Part shown: in pieces, positions 3,324 through 3,914 of the stretch
How the letters are laid out: each line of letters opens with the position of its first letter
Numbering within the stretch: the first letter of the stretch is position 1
Assembly (NCBI GenBank): GCA_963788655.1
Contig: CAWBHS010000044.1
Coordinates: forward strand, 1-31,040
From: an uncultured Verrucomicrobiae bacterium
GTDB taxonomy: Bacteria > Verrucomicrobiota > Verrucomicrobiia > Limisphaerales > JAFGQR01
Length of the DNA stretch: 31,040 bases
Direction of reading: 5' to 3'
Made by a program: the position numbers and the translations under genes
The notes under the pieces: generated by a model
The model's input: only the letters and a program-made list of their open reading frames with translations
Database searches by the model: none
Told to the model about the DNA's origin: nothing

Positions 3324-3914
3324 TTATGTTCTCGCGTAAAGCTCGCTGCCCTTCTCGGTGAACTCGCGGGACTTTTCTTCCATCCCCTTCTTCAGCGCCT
3401 CTTCCTCGGCGATCCCTTGTTCGGCGGCGTATTTGCGAACGTCTTCGGTGATCTTCATCGAGCAGAAGTGCGGGCCGCACATGGAGCAGAAGTGCGCGGT
3501 CTTTGCGCCTTCCTGCGGCAGCGTTTCGTCGTGGAATTGACTCGGACGCCGCCCGCTTCCTTGCCCTTCGGGCTTTCGCTTCGCGAAATTCTTCTCGGTC
3601 TGTCCCACAGCCCTCGAATCGCGCGCGGTCACGGGGTCGAGGCTGAGGTTGAATTGATCTTCCCAGCGGAATGGGCTTGGCTGCGCCCGCAGCCTCGGCC
3701 TGACGGCCTTTCGCTCTGCGAAATCCTTCTCGCAGCTTCCCAAGCGGCTCGAACCAAAGCGCGCCTTGCTCAACGCGTTGTCGCGGTATTGCGCCCCGGG
3801 ATGGCCTTTGGCCAGGTCGGCGGCGTGCGCGGCGAACAATTTGTCCTTAATGCGCCAGATTTGCTGAAGCACCACGTCGCCGTCGGTCGGTTGGTCGCGA
3901 AGCAACTTCTTCAC
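3324..3914 (-). CDS. Chimeric ORF: antitoxin-like N-terminus fused to a duplicated ThiC C-terminus with two in-frame inserts (may be a pseudogene)
   Basis: Start ([15 protein letters not shown]) resembles the 3911..4099 protein. The rest ([13 protein letters not shown]...CSMCGPHFC...SELYA) repeats the ThiC C-terminus at about 4665-5006. GTG start overlaps the upstream TGA. Confidence 0.7.
3537..3620 (-). repeat. 84-nt structured intragenic insert, copy B
   Basis: Replaces the Glu codon of VTAR-E-FHDE relative to intact thiC. Contains hairpins TTTCGC-GAA-GCGAAA and GCCC-GAA-GGGC. Confidence 0.85.
3672..3755 (-). repeat. 84-nt structured intragenic insert, copy A
   Basis: Replaces the Glu codon of KARF-E-FRWE. 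Same length as copy B with shared blocks (TTCGAG, TGGGA, CGAGAAG, ATTTCGC..GCGAAA, GCGGGCG). Confidence 0.85.

Follow-up and report, generated by a model that had tools for sequence, protein, structure and literature searches.

Hairpin-rich in-frame inserts in displaced thiC 3' fragments of Verrucomicrobia: a candidate small insertion element

To our knowledge, selfish elements that lie in frame within genes are textbook material only for Rickettsia. The Rickettsia palindromic elements (RPEs) are short, non-autonomous and structured, lie in frame in genes and are translated through without a transposase of their own, and the source cited here attributes a conserved peptide to each (PMC10969869). 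The inserts described below, in the thiC gene of an uncultured Verrucomicrobiae bacterium and its relatives, resemble RPEs in that they keep the frame of a protein-coding ORF and bring in no stop codon. They differ in length, 81–84 nt compared with about 150 bp for RPEs, and in distribution, as RPEs are dispersed in dozens of unrelated genes and the thiC elements were found only in thiC, mostly in displaced fragments. The thiC elements consist of four short hairpins, and their peptide frame varies between copies, unlike the conserved peptide of RPEs.

Other described systems share different features with these inserts. ORF-less derivatives of IS200/IS605 elements (PATEs) have hairpins near both ends, lack inverted repeats, and insert in a single orientation, on the 3' side of a fixed short sequence. 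Similarly, hairpins 1 and 4 of the thiC elements lie 6–8 nt from the element ends, CGA is found 5' of all three insertion sites, and a single orientation was observed in all 11 DNA copies. With both IS200/IS605 and REP/RAYT systems the thiC elements have in common the lack of terminal inverted repeats, a strand-specific structure, and a fixed short motif at the hairpin foot. Unlike these systems they are not dispersed, and no transposase, RAYT, HUH or Y1 gene could be identified within the 31-kb window (the whole stretch of DNA analysed, 31,040 nt). A tyrosine recombinase gene (Phage_integrase with a SAM-like N-terminal domain; 24223-25233, plus strand) is located 19 kb from thiC, and no link to the inserts was seen. 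The RAYT-mobilised REP/REPIN sequences combine a GT[AG]G foot with one palindrome and are extragenic and present in many copies, whereas the thiC elements have a CGAG foot and are intragenic and confined to thiC. REP-like intergenic palindromes of the GTAG-GACAGGCG... type are present in the window (9484-9516, 9585-9612, 12018-12050, 12181-12213 and 12290-12317), partly as inverted pairs about 100 nt apart. These palindromes, within 9484-9612 and 12018-12317, were rejected as relatives of the thiC inserts, from which they differ in sequence and with which they share a 6-7-mer only, no more than chance. Interpretation of the thiC elements as MITEs was rejected on the absence of terminal inverted repeats.

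The thiC core ORF of the window is followed downstream by three tightly packed ORFs of 161, 62 and 196 aa, all on the minus strand (Table 1). The first shows a weak match to the PIN domain (E 0.007, below the curated cutoff), and no family match was found for the second (ORF62). The third, thiC', is chimeric: its first 26 aa resemble the start of ORF62 and the remainder corresponds to the last ~115 aa of ThiC. The partial duplicate of ORF62 meets thiC at a short microhomology, which indicates an illegitimate junction. The GTG start of thiC' overlaps the TGA stop of ORF62 (GTGA, 3911-3914) and the 161-aa ORF shares 17 nt with ORF62, a layout which suggests that the genes may form one translationally coupled unit. 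Three blocks of thiC' align with the core: 3332-3536 with 4667-4871 (95.6% identity, 205 nt), 3619-3672 with 4873-4926 (98.1%, 54 nt) and 3757-3835 with 4930-5008 (92.4%, 79 nt). The direct repeats 4667-5008 and 3332-3835, longer than 30 bp and derived from the target, flank a two-ORF unit without mobility genes. The thiC gene itself (4665-6625, minus strand) is split by a frame change near 6225-6272. Its N-terminal ThiC-associated domain (6272-6625) lies in another frame and is 60% identical to protein P0024, compared with 95% for the core, which points either to a frameshifted mosaic gene or to an error in sequencing.

Table 1. Features at the thiC locus. Positions refer to the window unless a locus is named; a slash marks the point of insertion.
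Feature	Position	Strand	Remarks
thiC core ORF, 494 aa, without inserts	4659-6143	minus	Pfam ThiC_Rad_SAM, E 2e-182
Empty insertion sites in thiC core ORF	site 1 4927/4926; site 2 4873/4872; site 3 4861/4860		
Upstream copy of thiC duplication	4667-5008	minus	within thiC core ORF
161-aa ORF, first gene of unit between thiC repeats	4083-4568	minus	
ORF62 (62 aa), second gene of inserted unit	3911-4099	minus	
Partial duplicate of 5' coding part of ORF62	3824-3886	minus	matches 4009-4072, 86%
Chimeric thiC' ORF, 196 aa	3324-3914	minus	ORF62-like start and thiC 3' fragment with I1 and I2
Element copy I1, site 1 (ARF/E/FRW)	3672-3755; inserted 81 nt = 3673-3753	minus	102 bits, covariance model
thiC segment between I1 and I2, 51 nt	3621-3671	minus	98% identical to 4873-4926
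Element copy I2, site 2 (TAR/E/FHD)	3537-3620; inserted 81 nt = 3538-3618	minus	86.9 bits, covariance model
Conserved island end	L007:890-1003; L008:1681-1738; L004:1969-2030; L006:1962-2020		

An earlier note on this DNA had described two in-frame 84-nt inserts in the duplicated 3' end of thiC, and alignment with the uninterrupted copy confirmed these to the base. Each of the inserts, I1 and I2, stands in place of one Glu codon; put differently, a Glu codon preceded by C has gained 81 nt between its GA and its third base, A or G. The net gain is thus +81 nt in each case, with the frame kept, as that note had also stated, and with no stop codon in either insert. In the uninterrupted copy, site 1 reads TTCGA/ATTC and site 2 reads GCGA/GTTC. 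I1 and I2 are identical in 51 of 84 positions without gaps and have a common 24-nt core, which occurs twice in the window versus 0.01 times expected. Their description as diverged homologues with covarying hairpins also held, and all four hairpins quoted in the note are present. Hairpin 1 has one mismatch in each of the two window copies and perfect stems in relatives. I1 has CGAG at three of the four conserved positions described below, and hairpin 2 of I2 includes the mini-hairpin motif GCGAAGC.

A four-hairpin covariance model was fitted by all 11 copies (two from the window and nine from other genomes) with scores of 65–111 bits. On the alignment of these copies, which is itself fitted to the model, 94.5% of the cells are paired and 9 of the 22 base pairs show changes on both sides; the covariation score was reached by none of 500 shuffles, and pairing fell to 33–42% when partners were slid. 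The paired changes derive mostly from the split between I1 and I2, and the covariation rests essentially on these two lineages; among the eight I1 copies, 5 of 14 variable columns are in stems, which is no clear depletion. The weak terminal stem previously proposed to close the elements is predicted for some copies but finds no support in covariation. On the thiC sense strand, the sequence CGAG flanks the terminal hairpins on both sides and brackets the central pair. It is present at these four fixed columns in 8, 9, 10 and 9 of the 11 copies, amounting to 2–5 CGAG per element (3–5 in ten copies) compared to ~0.8 in shuffles, and the hairpin loops are of the type GNA or GNNA. No terminal inverted repeats are present, as the ends TTCGAG... 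and ...CGAGYCM are direct and not inverted, and in the test for a target-site duplication the left junction gave an ambiguous TTC or TTCGA-like repeat. No Rfam family matches the inserts in the window region or in seven related loci at gathering or permissive thresholds, in agreement with the lack of a recognised named family in the earlier note.

When folded as RNA most copies had z-scores between -0.9 and -1.6 and a single one reached -4.1, values that are mostly modest relative to shuffles. With DNA parameters the z-scores were -2.4, -3.7, -2.4 and -1.2 for the sense strand and -1.8, -2.7, -1.2 and -1.6 for the antisense strand. The sense strand as DNA folds into the four-hairpin model and outperforms the antisense strand in three of the four pairs, the I1 copy of the window being the exception. 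Stable tandem sheared G-A pairs are known from Y-GA-R contexts, and unusually stable DNA mini-hairpins from C-GNA-G triloops, for example GCGAAGC. Both features occur in the element on the thiC sense strand only. Together with the predicted DNA folding they may point to a single-stranded DNA form, which is a hint and not a proof.

Comparison of the copies shows that the element is conserved as nucleic acid and not as peptide, since the reading frames differ between copies. The I1 consensus is stop-free in all six frames, and the third insert of the proteins P0122 and P0148 matches I1 in frame +3. The I2 inserts of the window type and of the L009 type represent the same DNA translated in different frames, and I1 of P0003 contains a short stretch from another frame. 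A different third insert, in P0003, P0131 and P0145 (LPRCARPSG...), was rejected as a copy of the element, as no significant match was found in any frame. An AlphaFold2 model of P0003, based on an alignment of 40 sequences, had a mean pLDDT of 44 and was unusable.

The earlier note had placed the inserts at Glu-Phe (GARTTC) sites. The site preference is real, but this rule proved too narrow, as the homologous insert in P0122 and P0148 fills a third site, FHD/E/T (FHD/E/TLPQ, CGA/A). Common to all three sites is CGA/R, with CGA directly 5' of the element start TTCGAG. All three sites are found in a stretch of about 70 nt in the thiC 3' region and are the three most 5' of the CGAR sites that are Glu codons; as 8 of the 10 CGAR sites in this region are Glu codons already, the shared reading phase of the inserts is uninformative. 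The orientation is that of thiC in all 11 DNA copies. At the protein level some fragments have 3–5 copies, including nested and tandem ones; in P0174, as read from the protein, there are five element-derived segments, one nested in I1 and one beside I2.

Based on these properties we propose, tentatively, that the inserts are copies of a small non-autonomous insertion element of 81–84 nt, which depends on its hairpins, multiplies locally at CGA/R and hitch-hikes with the thiC repeat; I1 and I2 look like a small selfish or structural element that is tied to one recombination hotspot. Each new copy would be made nearby, in a step on single-stranded DNA that needs the hairpins and takes place at CGA/R; an HUH/Y1-type enzyme acting in trans or template switching during replication could carry it out. 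An element that is stop-free and a multiple of three in length would leave translation of the entered ORF uninterrupted, and could persist for that reason. Spread between genomes may occur by the element riding in the proximal thiC' repeat, moved together with islands by recombination inside thiC. I1 is 93–100% identical between loci and its flanks 66–98%, dropping to 66–80%; riding with islands would explain why I1 is so similar despite flanking thiC codons at 66–80% identity. The occurrence in thiC only is odd for a transposable element and counts against this proposal, as do the lack of transposase, RAYT or HUH genes in the window, the modest folding z-scores of most copies, and the covariation resting on two lineages, in which template switching at quasi-palindromes could give paired changes even without selection. 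The element would be a second, structurally different case of an in-frame selfish element, here in free-living Verrucomicrobia, and it would be unusual in being limited to a single gene and to the displaced arm of long target duplications.

A possible, if somewhat doubtful, alternative is that the inserts are not mobile and represent templated filler and local duplication of one ancestral hairpin-rich insertion in the thiC 3' region. This insertion could have originated for instance by template switching during repair, and microhomology-mediated switching or gene conversion could then have copied it to neighbouring CGA/A sites; CGAATTCC is present at both site 1 and site 2, and in most alleles 8 nt are common to the two. 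The paired changes in the stems would then result from template switching at quasi-palindromes and not from selection. Such an origin agrees with the location of all copies inside about 70 nt of one gene, with the nested and tandem copies, with deletions in fragments that join at CGAG (e.g. the L008 junction), and with the many unrelated small inserts in the same fragments. The centre of I1 also weakly resembles the thiC codons for KEFAEKG, albeit with an uncorrected p of about 0.035; derivation of I1 from thiC's own sequence was rejected, as this best local match was one of eight tests and is not significant once corrected for these. It is more difficult to reconcile filler with the four-hairpin, four-CGAG architecture that is kept between copies only 61% identical, or with the presence of I2 without I1 in five proteins (P0130, P0134, P0158, P0160 and P0186), and the net lengths, which are all multiples of three, need a filter that filler does not supply.

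Unrelated in-frame inserts are found in the same fragments. Those in the loci have net lengths of +63, +18 and +12 nt, and the proteins reveal at least a dozen further insert positions, with all lengths multiples of three. Some of these inserts destroy conserved ThiC motifs, such as 10 aa inside the CX2CX4C motif of P0187, and another replaces a conserved 14-residue ThiC stretch. Among the fragments several are decaying or have frameshifts, and the natural C-terminus is present in 46 of 72. Inserts unrelated to the element with lengths divisible by three imply that some general process or filter is at work in these fragments beside the element, which also counts against the proposal above, and their presence throughout non-functional remnants implies that something keeps these remnants open. 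Translational coupling or polarity affecting the island genes downstream could do so, as could occasional recombination back into the working thiC. Small GC-rich hairpin-forming inserts were seen in L002, L004, L005, L006 and L008, in a mosaic pattern among loci. The +63 nt insert is located at TTD/IAPGY, and is 62 nt long and frameshifted in L006; the +18 nt insert is located at GW/Y/GC, and the +12 nt insert replaces a 16-residue stretch of thiC fragments.

The thiC' copies are the downstream arm of long target duplications that flank small restriction-modification, toxin-antitoxin or Abi islands. Restriction-modification units have been described to insert with long target duplication (Furuta, Abe and Kobayashi 2010, PMC2853133), and the thiC fragments with their islands fit this type of insertion as it is set out in that source. 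As in the cases presented there, the window unit lacks mobility genes and is flanked by target-derived direct repeats of tens to hundreds of bp; unlike those cases, structured inserts lie within the duplicated arm, and the unit consists of a PIN-like and a small ORF without restriction and modification genes. In the contig of L005 and L004, genes for a type II restriction endonuclease and a methyltransferase lie between two thiC copies, with another methyltransferase gene downstream. L006 encodes an AccI-like restriction endonuclease and has a weak AbiEii match, and an HTH gene lies near the thiC fragment of L007. Also in L007 (1-1020), an upstream thiC piece stops at about residue 286 and is followed by a low-GC 199-aa ORF, after which the fragment restarts at residue 254; about 100 nt are thus duplicated around the insertion. 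The island context of the thiC copy and the CGAG motif were both absent from the earlier note. In Rhs/CDI toxin genes, orphan C-terminal modules, i.e. displaced 3' fragments with variable 5' ends, accumulate downstream as modules recombine in. The thiC fragments are similarly displaced 3' ends with variable 5' ends; unlike the Rhs/CDI genes, thiC is metabolic, its displaced ends lack the logic of a partner immunity gene, and the hairpin inserts have no counterpart there. These data show that restriction-modification, Abi and toxin-antitoxin units repeatedly land at the thiC 3' end, where fragments pile up that read open through many inserts of three-fold length.

A conserved non-coding island end of 60–110 nt with AGTTGAA(TT) direct repeats is located just upstream of the fragments in four loci (Table 1). 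It meets thiC at different residues in different loci, and is the source of the peptide NLKSFAQVE that recurs at the N-terminus of many fragment ORFs. The fragment starts are scattered over ThiC residues 400-566 (655-aa reference), with 17 of 72 just before site 1. In L007, I1 and the sequence upstream of it are 92–96% identical to other carriers and the codons after I1 74–78%, the lineage switch falling within about 12 nt of the 3' edge of I1. We read this distribution of identities as suggesting that the proximal part of the repeat travels with the islands and that the distal part is local.

This setting allows two further readings in which the inserts serve the islands. One, which we consider unlikely, is that a new kind of ORF-neutral single-strand element homes to CGA/R sites in the duplicated thiC 3' arm only and is kept because it is useful to the bordering islands, which it might serve by interrupting repeat homology or by labelling the arm for recombination; if true, it would amount to one mobile element that has specialised on the scar left by another. 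The other, which appears decidedly improbable, is that the inserts are functional cis-elements of thiC-associated islands, acting as heterology blocks that limit island loss, as an initiation site for recombination or single-strand formation, or as a structured part of the island transcript. Consistent with a cis-acting role are their near-confinement to the displaced arm (58 carriers versus 1, see below), the division of the 342-nt window repeat by the inserts into 205, 54 and 79 nt, the conserved AGTTGAA-repeat island end just upstream in four loci, the L007 breakpoint at the edge of I1, the arrangement of the thiC' ORF for putative translational coupling (GTGA overlap), and its position just upstream of a methylase gene in one contig, L004. 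Against such a role, the 205-nt block with 96% identity persists, which means that island deletion is not prevented; furthermore, the island boundaries miss the inserts in most loci, given the span of fragment starts over aa 400-566, many carriers are frameshifted or decaying, and Rfam provides no match. The question of what holds the gene remnants in frame, and whether hairpin inserts alter the stability of defence islands, can be tested.

Every copy that was found, i.e. 11 DNA copies and roughly 75 carriers at the protein level, is located in thiC. A genome scan with the exact 24-nt core, covering one genome each for 185,579 species and by its design missing diverged members, returned nine loci, of which two are chance matches of the core alone and seven contain full elements. 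The seven loci are all from Verrucomicrobia-type MAGs and all have the element at site 1 of thiC, two of them also with I2. A full-length thiC could not be demonstrated for any of them: in five the gene begins at ThiC residues 254-349, and the other two are truncated by a contig end. A phmmer search of a 73-aa insert segment against 1.84 billion representatives gave 20 matches, 19 of which are ThiC C-terminal fragments; the 20th, a repeat protein, was rejected as a false match. Word searches restricted to the insert segment identified 58 carriers of 107–343 aa among 87 candidates, all ThiC fragments, and the long candidates (n=235, at least 344 aa) include a single carrier, P0003 (730 aa, with three inserts). 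No copy outside thiC was found in the set of 5.8 billion proteins. Plasmid and phage collections, searched with blastn, gave matches to nothing but the 51-nt stretch of thiC that separates the inserts, and literature searches returned nothing on thiC-specific in-frame elements. The carriers are almost always 5'-truncated, displaced thiC 3' ends in Limisphaerales-like Verrucomicrobia, which accounts for a set of odd 'ThiC' fragments annotated in metagenomes.

It follows from the occurrence in thiC only, across the window, the 185,579 species genomes and two protein sets, that a dispersed genome-wide family similar to RPEs and entering many genes, as suggested earlier, is very improbable. The in-frame, stop-free and structured nature of the inserts and their multiple copies would be expected of such a family, and the exact-core scan was blind to its diverged members. 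A weak hairpin-1-like motif does occur outside thiC in L008 (13-93, plus strand, opposite to the fragment): an 18-bit model match with only hairpin 1 in common, forming a CGAG-stem-GGGA-stem-CGAG hairpin with compensatory stem changes. Against a dispersed family, scans of the 31-kb window and 17.7 kb of related loci with HMM, pattern and covariance models (filters off) gave no further convincing copy, all seven real genome matches are in thiC, no non-ThiC protein contains the peptide, and the peptide is not conserved, unlike that of RPEs as described in the cited source (PMC10969869). A 14-bit match at 22395-22479 in the window was rejected as a copy, since it looks like chance.

Finally, removal of the inserts at the RNA level as tiny spliced introns, as had also been suggested, or their ribosomal bypass to give a normal ThiC tail, is scarcely credible in spite of the precise insert boundaries, the structured RNA and the one full-length ThiC with three inserts (P0003), as no intron or ribozyme model matches the inserts while the real group II intron of the window was detected, lengths divisible by three and stop-free frames that are shifted between copies meet the needs of translation and not of splicing, the carriers are mostly truncated pseudogene fragments, and site 2 lacks matching take-off and landing codons. 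The group II intron is located at 27495-29652 on the minus strand (Rfam Intron_gpII, 63.9 bits; group-II-D1D4-7, 61.9 bits), and its RT/maturase ORF (27651-29159) has RVT_1, RVT_N and GIIM domains. Elsewhere in the window, a pyridine nucleotide-disulphide oxidoreductase gene (778-2494, plus strand) appears split into two overlapping frames, with Pyr_redox_2 in 778-1923 and the dimerisation domain in 1580-2494.
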